From NCBI GenBank assembly GCA_903908245.1, contig CAIVRE010000018.1, positions 66,876 through 130,875 of the forward strand: a stretch of 64,000 nucleotides of DNA. The letters are read 5' to 3'. This document shows positions 6,298-43,970 of the stretch, in pieces. How positions within the stretch are numbered: position 1 is the stretch's first letter; the number at the start of each line of letters is the position of its first letter. A program made the position numbers and the translations under genes. The notes under the pieces are model-generated. The model ran no database searches. It saw only the letters and a program-made list of their open reading frames with translations, and was not told the origin of the DNA. The DNA comes from Candidatus Omnitrophota bacterium. Lineage in GTDB: Bacteria > Omnitrophota > Gorgyraeia > Zapsychrales > Fredricksoniimonadaceae.

Positions 6298-6373
6298 GGC
6301 GGTCGTTCTTTTTTTCGGGTATTTTCTTTTCTCCGTCGGAGGAAAGCGTTTTCCTGCTTTTTGACACGAGGCA

Positions 6374-6408
6374 TTGTTTTTGATCCTTCGGAGTGGTATA
6401 TTTTCAAT
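6374..6408 (+). promoter_or_regulatory. putative sigma70-type promoter (TTGTTT-N17-TATATT) driving the riboswitch leader
   Basis: Hexamers read by eye; the transcript would start at about the aptamer 5' end. Confidence 0.3.
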
Positions 6409-6411
6409 GGA

Positions 6412-6500
6412 GCCGATAAAGGTAAACCCGGCGAAAGCCGGGGGCGCAAAGCGACAGACCTAAATCGTCCCGGTGTACCCTTTGTGTGGCCCGTTTGCCT
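6412..6500 (+). ncRNA. probable c-di-GMP-I (GEMM) riboswitch aptamer
   Basis: GGUAAACC-CGGC-GAAA-GCCGG-GGGCGCAAAGCG-ACAGACCUAAAUC...GUUUGCC matches the GEMM consensus GGCAAACC-stem/GAAA/stem-GGACGCAAAGCC-...CCUAAACC, with a P1 closing helix GGUAAAC/GUUUGCC. A hairpin plus U-tract follows at 6641-6674. Confidence 0.55.
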
Positions 6501-6640
6501 TCGTGGCGTTGGGCCCGGCCCTCTTGGGCGCTTGTTTGGGGTTGTTTCTCCGGGTGACACGGTGGCTGCGTTGCCGAAGAGCGAGTAGGGGTCCCCCGTT
6601 CCCCACTTTATCGGTCCCTTGTTATAATACCTATTCATTT

Positions 6641-6674
6641 GGCCCCCTGTTGTTTCGGGGGCCGTTTTATTTTG
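6641..6674 (+). terminator. intrinsic terminator-like hairpin (GGCCCCC-N9-GGGGGCC + UUUUAUUUU), possible riboswitch expression platform
   Basis: GC stem followed by a T-run. Confidence 0.45.
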
Positions 6675-6698
6675 TGTTGTGCCGGGGGCTGAATGTTT

Positions 6699-6852: not shown

Positions 6853-7128
6853 ATGTCAAACGATCTAATTAACTGGCTTTCTGCCAAACAGAATGAATGG
6901 GAATCCAGGTGCCGCAACTGCGGCGCGTGCTGCGGCGCTTTTGAGGATCCTTGTGTGCATCTGCATTTTGGCGAGAAGGGGAAAAGTTCTTGCCTTGTTT
7001 ATGAAACACGCCTCGGGCCGCAAAAGACTGTTTCCGGCCAGTCGTTTAATTGTGTAAATATCCGTGAAAAATTTGGTCAGTTCTGGCCTGGGGGTCAGTC
7101 CTGCGCTTATAAAATCGGGGTGCGTTAG
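6853..7128 (+). CDS. YkgJ/UPF0153-family cysteine-cluster (CxxCxxCC) protein
   Basis: CRNCGACCGAF motif; 91 aa. Confidence 0.5.
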   Translation: MSNDLINWLSAKQNEWESRCRNCGACCGAFEDPCVHLHFGEKGKSSCLVYETRLGPQKTVSGQSFNCVNIREKFGQFWPGGQSCAYKIGVR

Positions 7129-28124: not shown

Positions 28125-29300
28125 ATGTCGTTAGCAGAAGTTAAAAAACAGATTTTAGTCGCTGATTCTGATCTGCAATACTTGAAAAGTCTTATTTTTA
28201 CCCTGGAAGAGCATGGTTTTGATACATTGACGTCTGCTTCAGCTCAAGGGACCATTCAGAAAGCTTCAACATTGGACGTTGATCTTATCATTCTAAGTGA
28301 AACCCTTCCCGATGCGGATGGCCTTGATATATGCGCAAAGCTTAAAAGTAACAGGAGCACCGAGCATATTCCGGTCGTTATCTTAAGTGTTGATTGCCAT
28401 AGTCAGCAGCGGATAAAAAGTTATCAGATCGGGGCAGACGATTGCATCGGTAAGGATTGCGAGAAAGAAGAGCTTTTGGCGCGGATCGAGGCGATCTGGC
28501 GGCGTGGCAACGGCACGTTCAAGAGCCATCGTGAAGAGCGTCAGCAAAAAGTTATTGCGGAGCTCACGCGGATCATTGAGAAGGGGTTGATCGAGCCTCA
28601 TTTTCAGCCGATCTATTTTTTAAAGCCGTTCCGTTTGTTCGGTTTTGAGGTGTTGAGCCGGCCTTCTGCAGGGGTTTTGTTGACGAATGCGGAAGAGCTT
28701 TTCAAGGCAGCGATCAAATACGACCTGTATTTTCCGCTGGAGATGCTGTGCTGGCGCAAAGCGGCAGAGATCGTTTCGAACCATACAAAGAACGAGCATG
28801 TGTTCTTTAACTGCAGCCCCTATATTGTCGAGAATTCGAAATTTTCCATGGTCAAGAGCATATTTGAGGAGAGCCGTATTCCTCTGGATAAGGTTGTACT
28901 GGAGATCACGGAGCGTTCATCGATCTCCGCGCAGGAGCTTTTTTACGAGCGCTTGAGCAATTACCGGAATCACGGGGTCAGGTTCGCCGTTGATGATGTG
29001 GGGGGCGGCTATGCCAGCCTGGAGTCCATTGTGGCTACCAAGCCGGAAATCGTGAAGATCGACGCGCAGATTGTCCGCAATCTTCATCAGGACTCCGTCA
29101 AGCGCAGTATCGTCAAGTTCATCGTCGGTTTTTGCAAGGAGAACGGTATCGTTTCCATTGTCGAAGGCGTCGAGACCAGGGAGGAAATGGATGCGGTCGT
29201 TTCTCTCGGGATAGATGCGGTGCAGGGGTATTACCTTTTTCGGCCGACACCCGACCTGAATGTGCGGCAGATGAAAGATATCTGTATTGATTTCTCTTGA
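28125..29300 (+). CDS. response-regulator receiver + EAL domain protein (c-di-GMP phosphodiesterase)
   Basis: REC domain (ILVADSD...D...DLIILS). EAL domain (EVLSRPS, DDVGGGYASLES, EIVKIDAQI). Confidence 0.8.
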   Translation: MSLAEVKKQILVADSDLQYLKSLIFTLEEHGFDTLTSASAQGTIQKASTLDVDLIILSETLPDADGLDICAKLKSNRSTEHIPVVILSVDCHSQQRIKSYQIGADDCIGKDCEKEELLARIEAIWRRGNGTFKSHREERQQKVIAELTRIIEKGLIEPHFQPIYFLKPFRLFGFEVLSRPSAGVLLTNAEELFKAAIKYDLYFPLEMLCWRKAAEIVSNHTKNEHVFFNCSPYIVENSKFSMVKSIFEESRIPLDKVVLEITERSSISAQELFYERLSNYRNHGVRFAVDDVGGGYASLESIVATKPEIVKIDAQIVRNLHQDSVKRSIVKFIVGFCKENGIVSIVEGVETREEMDAVVSLGIDAVQGYYLFRPTPDLNVRQMKDICIDFS

Positions 29301-29355
29301 ACTTTAATCCGGAATAAATCGTTTGATTTCCCTCATTTTCAATTAGAATAATTCA

Positions 29356-30855
29356 ATGATCAACACGCGTTCAAACGGTATTCTCTGTCATATTTCATCC
29401 CTGCCTTCACCCTATGGTATCGGTGATCTTGGTCCACAGGCTTATAATTTCGCGGATATTCTGATCCGGGCCGGCCAGAAATGGTGGCAGGTCCTTCCAT
29501 TGATCCCGACGGATAATGCTCTGGGGAATTCGCCTTACAGCAGTTTCTCGGCATTTGCGTTCAATACTCTTTTTATCAGCCCCGAGCAGTTGCTCAGGGA
29601 CGGGTTGTGTGTTGAGAGTGACATTGATCCTCCGGTCTTTTTTTCTTCGGGGGCGGTGGATTTTGACCGGGTTTATTCATCCAAAGCCGTTCTTGTTGAG
29701 CGTGTGTTCGGGCGGTATTTGCAAAAAGGGATCCCATGGAAGGCTTTTGAGGATTTTTGTCTCGAGCAGGCGGGATGGCTGGATGATTTTGCACTTTTTG
29801 TTGTTTTAAAGCGAATATTCAAGGGGGATTGTTGGGTCGATTGGCCGGTAGAATTCCGCGATCGTTCTTCCAGCGCACTTATGGATGTTCGTGTCAGTAA
29901 AGCGTTGGATATCAAGAAGGAGAAGTTCGCGCAGTATTTATTCTATGATCAATGGATGAAGTTGAGGGCTCATTGTTCTGCCAATGGCCTGGGCATCATT
30001 GGGGATATCCCGATCTATGTTAATTATGATAGCGTGGATGTATGGGTTCATTCGGAATTTTTCAAGTTGGACGCTGACAAAAGGCAGACGTTCGTGGCGG
30101 GTGTTCCTCCGGATTATTTCAGCAAGGAGGGCCAGCGCTGGGGAAATCCTGTTTATGATTGGGATGCGCTTCGTTCGTCAGGTTTTTCCTGGTGGGTTGA
30201 GCGTATCCGGCATAATTTGACGGTCTTTGATTCGGTACGGGTAGATCATTTTCGTGCTTTTGCCCAGTGTTGGGAGATCCCCGCGCATGAAAGAACGGCG
30301 GTCAAGGGGGAGTGGTGTGATGTCCCGGGAATGGAGTTGTTCCTTGTCCTCAAGGAGAAGTTTCAGCGGCTTCCGATCATTGCGGAGGACCTGGGGATCA
30401 TTACGCCGGATGTGGATGCGTTGAAAGATTATTTCGGGTTCCCGGGCATGCGCGTGGTGATGTTCGCTTTTCATAATGAATATAAAGAAAGCCGGAATCT
30501 GCCGGAGAATTATACCCCTGAGAGTGTTGTTTATACCGGTACGCATGATAATAATACGGTGCGTGGCTGGTTCGAAGAAGATATGACCGGTCTTGAGAAA
30601 GAAAATTTTTATGAATATTTTAAATTCCAGCCTTCGGCCGGGAGCATTCATTGGGTGATGATCCGTATGGCCATGGGGTCGGTTGCGAATATTTGTATCA
30701 TTCCGTTGCAGGATCTTTTAGGCTTGAGTTCTTCGGCCAGGATGAATCGTCCATCGACAGTTAAAGGCAACTGGAGCTGGCGTTTTGAGCAGGGCGCTCT
30801 TTCGGCCGAGACCCTGATGCGTCTGCATCAATTAACATTGATATCCGGTCGATAG
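29356..30855 (+). CDS. malQ: 4-alpha-glucanotransferase (amylomaltase, GH77)
   Basis: GILCHISSLPSPYGIGDLG N-terminus; about 500 aa. Confidence 0.85.
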   Translation: MINTRSNGILCHISSLPSPYGIGDLGPQAYNFADILIRAGQKWWQVLPLIPTDNALGNSPYSSFSAFAFNTLFISPEQLLRDGLCVESDIDPPVFFSSGAVDFDRVYSSKAVLVERVFGRYLQKGIPWKAFEDFCLEQAGWLDDFALFVVLKRIFKGDCWVDWPVEFRDRSSSALMDVRVSKALDIKKEKFAQYLFYDQWMKLRAHCSANGLGIIGDIPIYVNYDSVDVWVHSEFFKLDADKRQTFVAGVPPDYFSKEGQRWGNPVYDWDALRSSGFSWWVERIRHNLTVFDSVRVDHFRAFAQCWEIPAHERTAVKGEWCDVPGMELFLVLKEKFQRLPIIAEDLGIITPDVDALKDYFGFPGMRVVMFAFHNEYKESRNLPENYTPESVVYTGTHDNNTVRGWFEEDMTGLEKENFYEYFKFQPSAGSIHWVMIRMAMGSVANICIIPLQDLLGLSSSARMNRPSTVKGNWSWRFEQGALSAETLMRLHQLTLISGR

Positions 30856-39849: not shown

Positions 39850-39857
39850 TTTATTTG

Positions 39858-39895
39858 GACCCGTTAGGAAGAAATTTCTAGCGGGTCTTTTTTTG
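39858..39895 (+). terminator. rRNA operon terminator (ACCCG.TAG-N10-CTAGCGGGT + T7)
   Basis: Stem-loop plus a T-run. Confidence 0.6.
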
Positions 39896-39978
39896 TTTTC
39901 TCGTCGATGAATGTAAAAGTTATTTTTAATGGATTGCAAGTTTATTGCTTTCAATGTGTTACAACTTCTAATGGCAGC

Positions 39979-40007
39979 TTGAAAACGCTACCTTCATGTG
40001 TTATCTT
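39979..40007 (+). promoter_or_regulatory. promoter TTGAAA-N17-TATCTT for the riboswitch leader
   Basis: Hexamers about 12 nt upstream of the aptamer. Confidence 0.4.
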
Positions 40008-40019
40008 TCATGGTGATGA

Positions 40020-40102
40020 AGAAAGGCAAACTACTTGAAAGAGTAGGGCGCAAAGCCGTGAGCCTGAATCCCGGGGGACCCGGGAAAGGCTGTCTGGTTG
40101 CC
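40020..40102 (+). ncRNA. probable c-di-GMP-I (GEMM) riboswitch aptamer
   Basis: AGGCAAACUACUUGAAAGAGUAGGGCGCAAAGCCGUGAGCCUGAAUCCCGGGGGACCCGGG...GGUUGCC is a near-exact match to the GEMM consensus (GGCAAACC, P1 hairpin with GAAA loop, GGACGCAAAGCC, CCUAAAC). A candidate attenuator lies at 40221-40250 before the ORF at 40360. Confidence 0.6.
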
Positions 40103-40220
40103 GTCGTGAGGACGTAAAGCTCGCTAAAAGAAAGTTTATAGCGAACGAGTACAGCCTTCGACCAAGCTTTGTAGCTTGGGCCGCACCTGTGAGTGTTGCC
40201 TTTGGCTACGATTACCAGAA

Positions 40221-40250
40221 CCCTTCGAGCCTTTCGAGGGGTTTTTATTT
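40221..40250 (+). terminator. intrinsic terminator / riboswitch expression platform (CCCTTCG-N7-CGAGGGG + TTTTTATTTTTT)
   Basis: 7-bp stem plus U-tract about 110 nt upstream of the SD/ATG of the 40360 gene. Confidence 0.5.
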
Positions 40251-40359
40251 TTTGGAAGGATACTTCCAAAGAATATCCTGGGACTCCTGGCGAGCTTTGA
40301 GCGAGCCGGGGGTTTTGGGATGACGGTGATGGCGCCCTGCGACCAAAAGGAGCAGGGAT

Positions 40360-42030
40360 ATGGCAGGCAAGCGTCTTGGGCTGATCTTGATGGGGATATG
40401 TGCGATCCTTGCAGTGCAAGAAAATGCGTTTGCAAGAGAAGATATTCCGATGTTGTTGCAGGACCAGCCTTCGTTGTCGCTTCCGTTCATCAATCCTCCA
40501 ATGCGTATTATTCCGGCGAATATTCCGGGATATCCCGGTCAATTGCCGGATCAGGAAAAGGCTGTTTCTTTGGATCGGGGGCTGGTGAGCTGGATCAAGG
40601 CCAATGTGAGCCCCAAGACAGGGATGTTCCTGAGTTTTCAGGTTTTACCTGATGAGAAAAAGTCTGTCTATTCCGAGATGGGGAAGCCGGATTCTGTCCC
40701 GGGGATCATAGAGCGTGTTATTGTTGAGAACGGGGTTGTCATCTATGACGGTGCCGTGGGGCAGATCGCGCTTACGCTTTCGGGCAGCGATGAAGATATG
40801 CGGATCGCACAGAAGCCCCTGGATATTTATTGGAAGGGCTGTTTGGGGGATCTGCAAAGCATCCGGGCAGGGTATCCCAATAATAATTTTATTTATGATC
40901 CAAAGGTCCCGGAAGCGGTGTCGTCTGATGTGGCGGCGAAGGGCACCCGGGGTTTTATTTACCGGATCATTAATGCTAATGGTGATTACCTTTCAGTTGA
41001 TCCGCTCGACGGAAAAAAGAAGTTTGATGGCTTTCCGACATGGCCAGACATTCATTGGGAGGACTGGAAGCCGGTCGCGGGGGAGAATGCGTGGGTGGTG
41101 ATCGCAGCCATGCAGATCTATCACAAGAAATATTTTGATCCGCAGACAAAAATGTACGATCAGCATCTTGAATCGGTTGAATTGCGGCTGTCGGAGGAAC
41201 TGGCACGCGCGGCATTGTTGCTTCAGGCGGAAAATGGCGGAATCAGGATGGCGCCACGCGGGACTTTTCGCGAGAATGAGCCTGTGCAGCCTTCAGGACA
41301 GGGGAGTTGGTGGTATAACCAGATATCCACCGAGAATAATCTTTCATGGTACAGTGCTTTGAGGATGCTTTATGCGGTGACAGGGAAGGAAGAATATTTA
41401 GTTGCGATGGCGAAAATGGAAGGCTATTTTAAACAGGTATTTAATGGCAGCGAAAAGTATTTTTACCAGGGGATGAGTTTTAACAATGGCGAGTGGCATG
41501 TCAATGGGGCGGACTTTGCCGTTGATGTTCAGACCTGGGGGGTATTGGCGCTTGGGGTGGATACGATCGACAGCTGGTTCGGTGACGGCGCAGCGTATTA
41601 TGCCTGGCAGAAGGCCAAGGAAGCATCTGCAACGCGTGATGCATCGGGCAAGTTGCTGGGAGTCGGATATACAACAGAGACGGGCCGGGTATCGGTCGAG
41701 TGGACGGCGGGGGCTATTATGGCGACCCGGCAGATGGCCAGGTATTATGATTATAAGCATCCGGAGTGGACCGGAGCGTTAAAGCAGGAAGCTTTGGAAA
41801 TGCGTGCCGGAATGGAGCTTCTTCGCCGGGACCTCCCGGGAGGGAAGTCGGCGTATGCGTACTCATCGAAGCGTGGATGGATCCCGTTCGGGTGGAATTC
41901 GCATGACCCTCGGGTGATGAGCCTGGCATCAACGGGATGGATGCTGTTTGTTGATCAGGGGTATAATCCGTTCATTATTAATGGCGACAAGAGGAATGAT
42001 ATCTTAAGGACTGCAATGCGGGCACAGTGA
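40360..42030 (+). CDS. secreted hypothetical protein (possible six-hairpin glycoside-hydrolase-like), 556 aa
   Basis: Signal peptide MAGKRLGLILMGICAILAVQENAFA; SD AAAAGGAG 8 nt upstream; downstream of the GEMM element. The domain call is weak. Confidence 0.45.
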   Translation: MAGKRLGLILMGICAILAVQENAFAREDIPMLLQDQPSLSLPFINPPMRIIPANIPGYPGQLPDQEKAVSLDRGLVSWIKANVSPKTGMFLSFQVLPDEKKSVYSEMGKPDSVPGIIERVIVENGVVIYDGAVGQIALTLSGSDEDMRIAQKPLDIYWKGCLGDLQSIRAGYPNNNFIYDPKVPEAVSSDVAAKGTRGFIYRIINANGDYLSVDPLDGKKKFDGFPTWPDIHWEDWKPVAGENAWVVIAAMQIYHKKYFDPQTKMYDQHLESVELRLSEELARAALLLQAENGGIRMAPRGTFRENEPVQPSGQGSWWYNQISTENNLSWYSALRMLYAVTGKEEYLVAMAKMEGYFKQVFNGSEKYFYQGMSFNNGEWHVNGADFAVDVQTWGVLALGVDTIDSWFGDGAAYYAWQKAKEASATRDASGKLLGVGYTTETGRVSVEWTAGAIMATRQMARYYDYKHPEWTGALKQEALEMRAGMELLRRDLPGGKSAYAYSSKRGWIPFGWNSHDPRVMSLASTGWMLFVDQGYNPFIINGDKRNDILRTAMRAQ

Positions 42031-42077: not shown

Positions 42078-43970
42078 TCAACCCGTCTTTTTTATTGTTC
42101 TGTATGACGAGATATTGATTTTTTTCGGAGTAATGGAAACCTCTATCCACCCGTCAGGCTTTAGCCTGTCGTGGTGGATAGAAGTCTCCAAAACTTCCGG
42201 AGGAAGTTTTGGAGAGGTGGCCGAGTGGTTGAAGGCGCACGCCTGGAAAGTGTGTGACTGCAGAAATGTGGTCCCAGGGTTCGAATCCCTGCTTCTCCGT
42301 ATTTGATACCAATTCGAACCCTGGTGCTCCTGATCGAGGAGCGCCAGGGTTTCGATGTTTGTATGGGCCACGCAATATGGCTTGAAATCCCTTTCCTTGT
42401 CTTCAAACAAGCGATAATAGTCCGAATCCTTAGATAGTACTGGCTCGAGGCTGACCGGCCCTAAAAGCTCTTTTAAAGACAGGGAAGAGGCTAATGTGTC
42501 CTGGGAAAGTGTCTCGCTAAGTTTGGTCAGCCGGTTCTCGATCCATTCTTTGGGTGGGGCTTTAAAGGTGTTGTTGGTTTGGAACTCAAGGGATTGGATA
42601 TCCTGTTTGAGGTTAGTATCTTTTCGTTCTGCTTCTGTCAGGGCGTCTGCTACTGATTTGGACAGATTCCCGACTTTAATGAAGTTGATATAGTTTTGGA
42701 TCTCATCCTGCAATTTTGCGATCTCGGCACGTTTCTTCTTGAGGGTTTCCGGCGTCTTGTTTAATGTCGCAGCCGCTACTTTCTCGACCTTCTCGTAGAT
42801 GTATTCCAGGTTTTCGACGGTAAGGATCTTTTCTTTTAGGTCAGCGAGGATCTGTTCTTCGATCCTCTTTCGGGGGATGATAATGGTGTTCTTGCAGGTT
42901 TTTCTGCCGGCATTGTAACAGCCATAATAGCCCGTTGACTTGCCGCTCACCAGAACAATAGCACCGTCGCAAAGGCTGCATTTCATCAGGCCTGAGAAGA
43001 GGTGGGTGGGGCTGGTGTGGACGTAGCTCTTTTGTTTGTAGAATTTCTGGCGCTTTTTGCTGACAGGCCATGAACCTTCCATATCTTTCCAGCGTTGTTG
43101 CGCTTTATCCCAGGTGTCTTTATCGATAATGATAAGATCTTCACGGAAGAAGACCATCTGGTCTTTTACAGGTCGAGGCGTCGTCTTCTTTTTGCCCGTC
43201 ATAGGATCTCTGGAGGTTTTACTCCGTCGCCAGTCCCATTTCCCGATATAACGTTCGTTCTTCAGGATCCTGGAGAGGGTGGAGACATTCCAGCCATTTT
43301 TCTTACCCTTCTTTGTCGCCAGGCCTTCTTCATTGAAGAGGCAGGCGATCTTGTGAACGCTTTTTCCGGAAATGAATTCAATGAAGATTTTTTTAATGAT
43401 CTCGGCTTCTTCGGGGTTGATGACATGGATCCGGCCTTCATATTTCGCTTGACCGCGCTTATTCATGCGTAGTTCGCCGTAAGGCTTGGTGTAATAGCCA
43501 TAGACGTTCTCTCCGGCGCTAAAACCTCTCAGTTTTTGCCCTTCCAGACCGCGCATTGTCTTTTTTCTAAGGTCATCCAGATATAGCTCGTTTATCAATC
43601 CGCGCAGTTGAATGCCGAGCTTGGAGTTTTCGTCATCCGTGACGATTCCGTCAGATACGGAGATAAGTTTTACCTGCAGGTAGTTGAATTGAAGAACAAG
43701 TGTAAGCATTTGATGGTTGCTTCTGGAGAGGCGGGAGAGGTCGTCAACGACAACGGCTTCAAACTCGTGTTGTTCCATTGCTTTTGTTAATGCTTGCAGG
43801 GCAGGGCGGTTGATCAATGCGCCTGAAATGGCCTGATCTGTAAAAATGTGGTTATCATCGATGGTAATGTCATGCGCGGCACAGTAATTCTTACAGACGC
43901 GGATCTGGTCATCTAGACTTTTCTCGCTTTGGTTCTCTGAGGAATATCTGGCATAAATAGCGGCGCGCAT
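42078..43970 (-). CDS. large serine recombinase (resolvase/invertase-type catalytic domain + recombinase domain + zinc ribbon + coiled coil)
   Basis: N-terminus MRAAIYARYSSENQS...DDQ is the Ser-recombinase catalytic motif. A C4 zinc-ribbon (CSLCDG...CYNAGRKTC) follows. The last ~74 codons (42078-42300) are antisense to tRNA-Ser and its leader, so the real C-terminus may be shorter. Confidence 0.75.
   Translation of the reverse strand: MRAAIYARYSSENQSEKSLDDQIRVCKNYCAAHDITIDDNHIFTDQAISGALINRPALQALTKAMEQHEFEAVVVDDLSRLSRSNHQMLTLVLQFNYLQVKLISVSDGIVTDDENSKLGIQLRGLINELYLDDLRKKTMRGLEGQKLRGFSAGENVYGYYTKPYGELRMNKRGQAKYEGRIHVINPEEAEIIKKIFIEFISGKSVHKIACLFNEEGLATKKGKKNGWNVSTLSRILKNERYIGKWDWRRSKTSRDPMTGKKKTTPRPVKDQMVFFREDLIIIDKDTWDKAQQRWKDMEGSWPVSKKRQKFYKQKSYVHTSPTHLFSGLMKCSLCDGAIVLVSGKSTGYYGCYNAGRKTCKNTIIIPRKRIEEQILADLKEKILTVENLEYIYEKVEKVAAATLNKTPETLKKKRAEIAKLQDEIQNYINFIKVGNLSKSVADALTEAERKDTNLKQDIQSLEFQTNNTFKAPPKEWIENRLTKLSETLSQDTLASSLSLKELLGPVSLEPVLSKDSDYYRLFEDKERDFKPYCVAHTNIETLALLDQEHQGSNWYQIRRSRDSNPGTTFLQSHTFQACAFNHSATSPKLPPEVLETSIHHDRLKPDGWIEVSITPKKINISSYRTIKKTG
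42185..42215. repeat. 31-bp near-perfect palindrome overlapping the tRNA-Ser 5' end
   Basis: TCTCCAAAACTTCCG-G-AGGAAGTTTTGGAGA; the arms differ at one position; the last 5 nt are tRNA nt 1-5. Confidence 0.5.
42211..42299 (+). tRNA. tRNA-Ser (GGA)
   Basis: GGAGAGGTGGCCGAGTGGTTGAAGGCGCACGCCTGGAAAGTGTGT, a long variable arm, GGTTCGAATCC and CTTCTCCG; 89 nt, class II. Confidence 0.85.
42314..42354. repeat. imperfect ~17-bp-stem hairpin immediately 3' of tRNA-Ser, containing an inverted copy of the tRNA T-arm segment
   Basis: TCGAACCCTGGTGCTCC...GGAGCGCCAGGGTTTCGA; TTCGAACCCTGG is the reverse complement of tRNA nt CCAGGGTTCGAA. Confidence 0.4.

Follow-up and report, generated by a model that had tools for sequence, protein, structure and literature searches.

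In which direction does bis-(3'-5')-cyclic dimeric guanosine monophosphate (c-di-GMP) switch a gene that sits behind one of its riboswitches in Omnitrophota, an uncultivated phylum whose signaling biology is essentially unstudied, and what kind of protein is placed under such control? We examined this question in a 64,000-nucleotide (nt) stretch of contig CAIVRE010000018.1 from a Candidatus Omnitrophota bacterium (assembly GCA_903908245.1), called the window below, in which an initial annotation had placed a GEMM (c-di-GMP-I) riboswitch ahead of a gene for a secreted protein of 556 amino acids (aa). By its sequence, the window RNA is a canonical c-di-GMP-I (GEMM-I) aptamer at the 5' end of a monocistronic mRNA, and, a proposed second aptamer excepted, the interpretation offered in the initial annotation is supported. 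We lean slightly toward a reading in which this canonical aptamer works as an OFF switch on both transcription and translation. The RNA class itself is already known, and the element is an ordinary c-di-GMP-I riboswitch that the standard Rfam model finds; what is new is the Omnitrophota host context and the phylum-wide link to an uncharacterized secreted protein family. A full-text literature search returned no paper linking Omnitrophota with c-di-GMP riboswitches.

Identity of the aptamer and its ligand

Scanning the whole 64-kb window with Rfam at gathering thresholds (GA) gave a match to RF01051 (c-di-GMP-I/GEMM-I) that covers model positions 1-87 of 87, with 63.2 bits versus a GA of 35 and an E value of 5e-10. 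This is the covariance-model check that had been suggested with the initial annotation, and the full-length match lies far above the threshold. A local permissive Rfam scan found the same aptamer again (E 4.5e-12), and clade model R1 scores it at 103 bits. All the defining features of RF01051 that could be checked are present, the receptor consensus excepted. Like Vc2 of Vibrio cholerae, the prototype of RF01051, the window aptamer is located in a 5' leader and has two hairpins, a GAAA tetraloop, and the cores GGCAAAC and GCGCAAAGCC. It also shares with Vc2 the ligand contacts G20, A47, and C92, which correspond to G40025, A40052, and C40101 when aligned to the Rfam consensus and numbered by what we take to be the Vc2 sequence. 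It differs from Vc2 and RF01051 in its host phylum, its non-consensus receptor, and the uncharacterized gene family behind it, and, unlike Vc2, it has no obvious closing helix next to the pocket, where positions 19 and 93 are A and C.

Since G, A, and C at the ligand-contact positions form the c-di-GMP pattern and not that of the cyclic GMP-AMP (cGAMP) type, the ligand is probably c-di-GMP. Two other classes, GEMM-Ib and the variant c-di-GMP-I-GGC (RF03167), share the clan and the fold of the window aptamer. Moreover, the position equivalent to G20 varies in orthologous leaders (A at L013:1607, L014:2227, and L023:2230; C at L009:2185 and L017:2234), and the aptamers of eight distant orthologues have RF03167 as their best-scoring model. 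That the window aptamer senses another cyclic dinucleotide, such as 3',3'-cGAMP in the GEMM-Ib manner, or belongs to the GGC variant class is nevertheless highly improbable: position 40025 is G, not the A that marks GEMM-Ib at position 20, the equivalents of A47 and C92 are A and C, and competition within clan CL00126 retains RF01051 over RF03167 for the window.

The initial annotation had also raised the possibility of a degenerate second aptamer, ACGUAAAGC...CUAAAAG, between the aptamer and the terminator (40106-40216), and this part did not hold. A local Rfam scan of 39860-40420 gave no further RF01051 match at E<=10, and a clade-specific covariance model run with its filters off scored at most 4.4 bits outside the known aptamer; tandem c-di-GMP aptamers were rejected for the window leader, as a second match to the aptamer model was not found. 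The stretch instead contains a motif, CGU(U)AA, that is conserved and forms part of the loop of a conserved GUGAG...CUCGC hairpin. The motif occurs 3' of the aptamer in nearly all relatives, and the pairing of the hairpin is kept as GUGAGU/ACUCAC in L005 and L022 and as GUGAG/CUUGC in L003.

Conservation across Omnitrophota

A scan of one genome per species produced 75 related loci, almost all of them in metagenome-assembled genomes (MAGs) of Omnitrophota. In 15 of the first 20 loci, an RF01051 match that passes the GA lies just ahead of the homologue. A clade model built from those matches finds the gene preceded by an aptamer in 38 of the 75 loci; in about 7 of the 75, the available upstream sequence is too short for a judgment. 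In an alignment of 43 related aptamers, paired cells make up 91.8%, and 22 of the 25 pairs have changed on both sides; the score for covariation is 0.455, compared with no more than 0.112 for slid partners, and 500 shuffles never scored as high. Fitting this alignment to the model biases the counts in favor of structure; the Rfam matches do not depend on it. The contact residues are likewise kept in most of the 43 aptamers, with G at G20 in 36, A at A47 in 41, and C at C92 in 41.

The promoter that the initial annotation had written as TTGAAA-N17-TATCTT is present and carries a TG extension. Within the window such a match is by itself not above chance (3 sites found versus 3.4 expected). In nine related loci, however, the -35 hexamer and TGnTATnTTT are invariant and equally spaced (alignment A4). 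The whole arrangement of promoter, aptamer, and terminator proposed for this gene is conserved upstream of orthologous genes. Several MAGs also carry a divergent second paralogue without an aptamer match, as in the pairs L003/L055, L033/L032, L037/L057, and L018/L066.

Expression platform and direction of switching

The leader (40010-40375) is far more structured than shuffled sequences, at -165.6 kcal/mol and a z-score of -8.15. The terminator hairpin reported in the initial annotation is there, as a stem of 13 pairs at 40217-40245 followed by TATTTTTT. Its sequence, (ACCAGA)ACCCUUCGA...UCGAAGGG plus a U-run, is conserved in 19 of 21 leaders, namely, those of 20 related loci and the window; the homologous form is CCCUUYGA...UCRAAGGG with a U-run, and it is the sequence of the stem that is kept, not its structure alone. 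Aptamer and terminator have no nucleotides in common and are separated by 111 nt, so the two structures can be present together. The Cd1 riboswitch of Clostridioides difficile, upstream of flgB, has the same property: it is a transcriptional OFF switch in which aptamer and terminator do not overlap and can coexist, and the antiterminator borrows aptamer residues (PMC9262584). Unlike Cd1, the window has several conserved hairpins in the interval before the terminator, and beyond the U-run it has a structured segment of 107 nt up to the ATG, with a hairpin that sequesters the Shine-Dalgarno (SD) sequence, which suggests a second, translational layer.

On the OFF reading, an aptamer bound to c-di-GMP would stay folded and the separate terminator (40217-40253) would form. 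In the ligand-free RNA, aptamer residues would pair with the 5' half of the terminator and its flank, GAAG (40018-21) with CUUC (40223-26) and UCUGGU (40093-98) with the complementary ACCAGA (40214-19), so that read-through would be favored. In read-through transcripts with an unfolded aptamer, GCGCCCUGC would pair with the aptamer core GUAGGGCGC (40043-51), where 9 bp including one G-U are possible, and the SD would be open. Once the aptamer is locked by its ligand, the CCCUGC part of this element (40335-40) would pair over 6 bp with GCAGGG (40352-57), closing the region from the SD to the AUG. In the comparison with relatives the switching element, about 20 nt ahead of the SD, is conserved at the same position in L001, L002, L004, L005, and L022 and reads GCCCUGC in L003 and L013; the CCCUGC/GCAGGG hairpin forms in all folds and is conserved, although a U-A pair has become U-G in L002.

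Three lines of comparison point to OFF. For transcription, 18 of 19 leaders folded as far as the terminator loop have the 5' half of the terminator paired to aptamer residues, most often to the purine-rich 5' flank with the equivalents of G20 and G21. Pairing of this kind is incompatible with the ligand pocket, consistent with an antiterminator that forms when no ligand is bound. The duplexes are more stable than composition-matched shuffles in 18 of the 19 leaders, but the mean z is only -1.0.

For translation, 9 of 18 loci carry, 12-24 nt ahead of the ATG, a stretch of 7 nt or more that is complementary to the aptamer, and complements before the ATG have p<=0.05 in 8 of 21. L062 repeats 9 nt of its own aptamer core, GGUAGGGCA, exactly against the AUG, with the complement UGCCCUACC upstream, and L063 has the 9-nt copy AGGGCUCAA of its own aptamer. 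These mimic elements track the clade-specific GCGC/GCAC/GCUC variation of the aptamer, which is the expected signature of a three-element design with sequestor and anti-sequestor.

The third line comes from the eight distant Omnitrophota loci in which an RF03167 aptamer (62-73 bits versus a GA of 59) stands ahead of the orthologous gene (L033, L037, L039, L041, L044, L050, L052, and L058). Most of them have the ATG 2 nt after the aptamer and lack a terminator; L044 does not, and in L039 the start codon was not found. The same gene is thus joined to a different sensor variant on a purely translational platform, and since aptamer folding would bury the ribosome-binding region there, this arrangement implies OFF.

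The same riboswitch might instead be ON, with c-di-GMP preventing termination and inducing the secreted enzyme, an alternative that we regard as possible but doubtful. Secreted glycosidases often belong to matrix-polysaccharide programs that are induced at high c-di-GMP. Two routes can be drawn. In one, the ligand would stabilize a closing helix between the 5' flank GAAG/AAAGG and the terminator 5' half CCCUUC; pairing between flank and terminator is indeed predicted in truncated folds of most relatives, and topologically it is a P1-like closure of the junction. However, the complementarity in relatives runs into the G20/G21 equivalents (CCC/GGG in L004, L005, and L022; CCUU/AAGG in L062 and L021), and as these are needed in the bound pocket, the helix is a competitor of the bound state and not an extension of it.

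In the other route, the ligand would free the mid-leader element ACAGCCUUCGAC to compete for the 3' half of the terminator. This element pairs with 40087-94 in the unconstrained, ligand-free minimum-energy fold, and it is a candidate anti-aptamer by its complementarity; ACAGCCUU pairs with the 3' strand of the aptamer in that fold, and CCUUCGA could pair with UCGAGGG of the terminator. The CCUUCGA(C) motif is conserved in L001, L002, L003, and L013, but this relay is missing from the short leaders of L004, L005, and L022. An ON-type GEMM-I switch has a precedent in pilM, where aptamer and terminator folds are mutually exclusive (PMC9262584). Unlike the pilM design, the window terminator is self-contained and includes no aptamer residues, and an ON switch is hardly conceivable for the orthologues in which the ATG follows the aptamer by 2 nt.

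A third explanation gives the ORF a secondary place: the main product would be a short RNA of about 235 nt that includes the aptamer and ends with the terminator, acting as a stable small RNA (sRNA) or as a sponge for c-di-GMP. A strong promoter and a strong terminator do bracket the aptamer, the leader is unusually structured, and a long structured gap separates the U-run from the ATG. Reportedly, Bdellovibrio merRNA and an sRNA associated with Vc2 are precedents. We consider this explanation improbable, as the aptamer is tied to one gene family in 38 loci, often with the ATG 85-190 nt or even 2 nt downstream, and SD-linked elements complementary to the aptamer are conserved; these features point to regulation of the ORF in cis.

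Several points nevertheless weigh against the OFF switch that we slightly favor. The duplex between the window's own terminator and aptamer is not significant (z -0.57), and neither is its 7-nt complement GCGCCCU (p ~0.25-0.3 versus shuffles). The terminator and the SD hairpin fold with or without the aptamer enforced (-88.5 versus -94.1 kcal/mol for folds up to the terminator), which makes thermodynamic folding uninformative as a test of ON or OFF and means that any switch must be kinetic. The related sequences are phylogenetically linked, and the locus counts overstate their independence. The AAAGG/CCCUU pairing of the 5' flank could be a closing helix stabilized by the ligand and give an ON switch. 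The tetraloop receptor, CCUGAAU...GAAAGG, departs from the consensus CUAAG...UAUG (in full, CCUAAG...UAUGG), the canonical form of which is seen in some relatives; with the GAAA tetraloop present, a type-1 tetraloop-receptor contact in the window aptamer is plausible. Finally, the alternative pairings are putative, and so is the sign of regulation, the latter being a further difference from Cd1.

Sensor variation at orthologous leaders

Orthologous leaders differ in the sensor as well as in the platform. Besides the variants at G20, the C92 position is U in L008 and L061. Such changes might alter ligand specificity, A20 being the cGAMP signature; coverage of L013 is very low, and its A20 may be a sequencing error. 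Another form of variation is seen in L010:2219-2358, L026:2213-2343, L031:2221-2352, L035, L047, and L049, whose aptamers carry one or two extra hairpins between GGGAC and GCAAAGCC, insertions that would make a four- or five-way junction of the three-way one. The clade model split some of these into two partial matches. Tandem aptamers were considered for L035, L047, and L049 and rejected, as by eye each looks like a single aptamer with hairpins inserted between GGGAC and GCAAAG; the apparent double matches in L016 and L059 may be single aptamers of the same kind.

More distant relatives share a conserved (A)AGCGCUCUUUU(A)GA motif that follows the -10 box and precedes the aptamer by 10-30 nt (L009, L014, L017, L018, L023, L026, L031, L033, L037, L039, L041, L044, L050, L052, and L058). 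The subgroup of the window lacks it. The motif is similar to the 5' strand of the first hairpin, with which it might be in competition. An RF03167 aptamer also occurs in MAG MBPbin6 at L054:4842-4921 (-), downstream of the homologue and on the other strand; it presumably controls a different gene, which suggests that riboswitches of this type have further targets in Omnitrophota.

A bolder reading joins these observations: the leader would be a two-layer c-di-GMP OFF switch that combines a Cd1-like terminator with a three-element sequestor of the SD, in which the switching strand pairs with the ligand-pocket core of the aptamer, and the secreted (alpha/alpha)6 enzyme under its control would be the principal riboswitch-controlled c-di-GMP output across Omnitrophota, with a sensor that was repeatedly remodeled as canonical GEMM-I, as a GGC variant fused to the start codon, by G20A/G20C changes, and by junction insertions. 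We think this unlikely as a whole. If true, the locus would be a natural series for the evolution of riboswitch specificity and expression platforms. For a single gene, the orthologous leaders offer a small, comparable set of expression platforms and of aptamer variants, and the likely two-layer platform and the sensor diversity are modestly interesting leads rather than established findings.

The regulated protein

The SD, the ATG at 40360, and the 556-aa ORF described in the initial annotation are all present, and its view of the product as secreted agrees with an N-terminus, MAGKRLGLILMGICAILAVQENAFA, that is signal-peptide-like by eye and modeled as a helix over residues 2-23. Sequence searches gave no Pfam or NCBIfam match at E<=1 and no PDB sequence or profile match below E 0.39. 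There are at least 188 homologues, every one with a source-given name being a "hypothetical protein"; the organisms named are Candidatus Omnitrophica/Omnitrophota and one hydrothermal vent metagenome, and among these homologues the closest non-identical one is 76% identical.

An AlphaFold2 model from a 16-sequence alignment is largely helical (predicted local distance difference test score [pLDDT] 77; predicted template modeling score [pTM] 0.81). Foldseek matched it in the PDB to (alpha/alpha)6-barrel carbohydrate enzymes with E values of 5e-6 to 1e-3, including glucose/cellobiose 2-epimerases and proteins like glycoside hydrolase (GH) families GH88, GH76, and GH63/GH15; the top matches are sugar 2-epimerases, GH88, and GH76 at E ~5e-6. 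Identity is only 8-14%, and template modeling (TM) scores are modest, at 0.43-0.66 (0.35-0.48 when normalized to the query). The predicted fold is thus like that of AGE-family 2-epimerases, GH88 unsaturated glucuronyl hydrolase, and GH76 alpha-1,6-mannanase, a likeness to six-hairpin enzymes that comes from the predicted model and not from sequence. Trp, Asp, Glu, and Arg are invariant at many positions of the protein family. The product may reasonably be read as a secreted carbohydrate-active enzyme, with a predicted (alpha/alpha)6-barrel of glycosidase or epimerase type in an uncharacterized, mostly Omnitrophota family.

The riboswitch flags a strongly conserved secreted protein family as a c-di-GMP-controlled function. 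If the OFF reading is true, the enzyme would be made at low c-di-GMP, which would suggest a role in dispersal, matrix degradation, or attack on host surfaces rather than in matrix building.

Organization of the transcription unit

The features of the leader and gene are collected in Table 1.

Table 1. Positions of the features of the riboswitch locus in the window
Feature	Position	Strand	Basis and details
Sigma-70-type promoter	39979-40007	+	Consensus scan, 9/12 matches, TG present; -35 TTGAAA 39979-39984, 17-nt spacer, extended -10 TGtTATCTT 39999-40007 (TG 39999-40000)
c-di-GMP-I aptamer	40015-40105	+	RF01051, clade model, covariation
Aptamer first hairpin, GC/GC closing pairs	40026-27 with 40050-51	+	Rfam consensus alignment
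Aptamer first hairpin, 6-bp stem	40031-36 with 40041-46	+	GAAA tetraloop 40037-40
Aptamer second hairpin	40054-64 with 40088-99	+	7-bp distal stem 40069-75 with 40079-85
Post-aptamer hairpin	40106-40124	+	GUGAG 40106-10 with CUCGC 40120-24; loop GACGUAAAG holds CGU(U)AA
Mid-leader element ACAGCCUUCGAC	40151-40162	+	Complementary to AAGGCUGU 40087-94, 3' strand of aptamer second hairpin
Intrinsic terminator	40214-40253	+	ACCAGA flank 40214-19; stem 40217-29 with 40233-45; U-run 40242-53
Window-specific insertion, ~77 nt	40247-40327	+	Two hairpins, ~40247-40277 and 40275-40322
Switching element GCGCCCUGC	40332-40340	+	Pairs with aptamer core or GCAGGG
Ribosome-binding region	40346-40362	+	SD AAAGGAG 40346-52; sequestor GCAGGG 40352-57; ATG 40360-62
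Regulated gene, 556-aa protein	40360-42030	+	ORF (open reading frame), preceded by AAAGGAG

Upstream of the promoter, an rRNA operon (16S, tRNA-Ile, tRNA-Ala, 23S, and 5S) ends at 39851 and has its own terminator at 39857-39888, so the riboswitch transcript is a separate unit. Its start would lie at about 40013-40015, judging from the promoter sequence. The regulated gene is monocistronic, with a tRNA-Ser at 42210-42300 downstream. The upstream rRNA and 5S genes are shared by L001, L003, and L013, and a downstream tRNA is also found in L001 and L003; a tRNA similar in size to the window's tRNA-Ser occupies its position in L001, L002, and L003.

The insertion between the terminator and the switching element forms two stable hairpins, one of them rich in G-U pairs and hence strand-specific. 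It is absent from L001, L002, L003, and L013, with 10 nt in its place in L002. A repeat or mobile element was considered for it and rejected, as no second copy was found in the window or the related loci.

Downstream, the ORF of a large serine recombinase (42078-43970, -; Resolvase, Recombinase, and Zn_ribbon_recom domains) runs antisense through tRNA-Ser(GGA) (42210-42300, +), which suggests that a mobile element integrated at this tRNA, directly downstream of the riboswitch-controlled gene.

c-di-GMP context in the window

The REC-EAL phosphodiesterase gene cited in the initial annotation as a sign of c-di-GMP signaling is borne out at 28125-29300 by Pfam matches to EAL (3e-43) and Response_reg (6e-17). 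It is directly followed by a gene for a GH77 4-alpha-glucanotransferase (29356-30855; Pfam 1e-167), so that a c-di-GMP phosphodiesterase adjoins a glucan-remodeling enzyme at 28125-30855.

The window has another c-di-GMP-I aptamer at 6411-6578 (+), which matches RF01051 with 62.6 bits and has an insertion of about 80 nt in the distal second hairpin. The ORF after it (6853-7128; 91 aa, Cys-rich) matched no Pfam family. A promoter-like TTGACA...TATATT (6362-6400) lies upstream and a terminator-like hairpin, GGCCCCCUG...CGGGGGCC with a U-run (6643-6675), downstream, and the 5' half of this terminator, GCCCCC, is complementary to the aptamer core GGGGGC.

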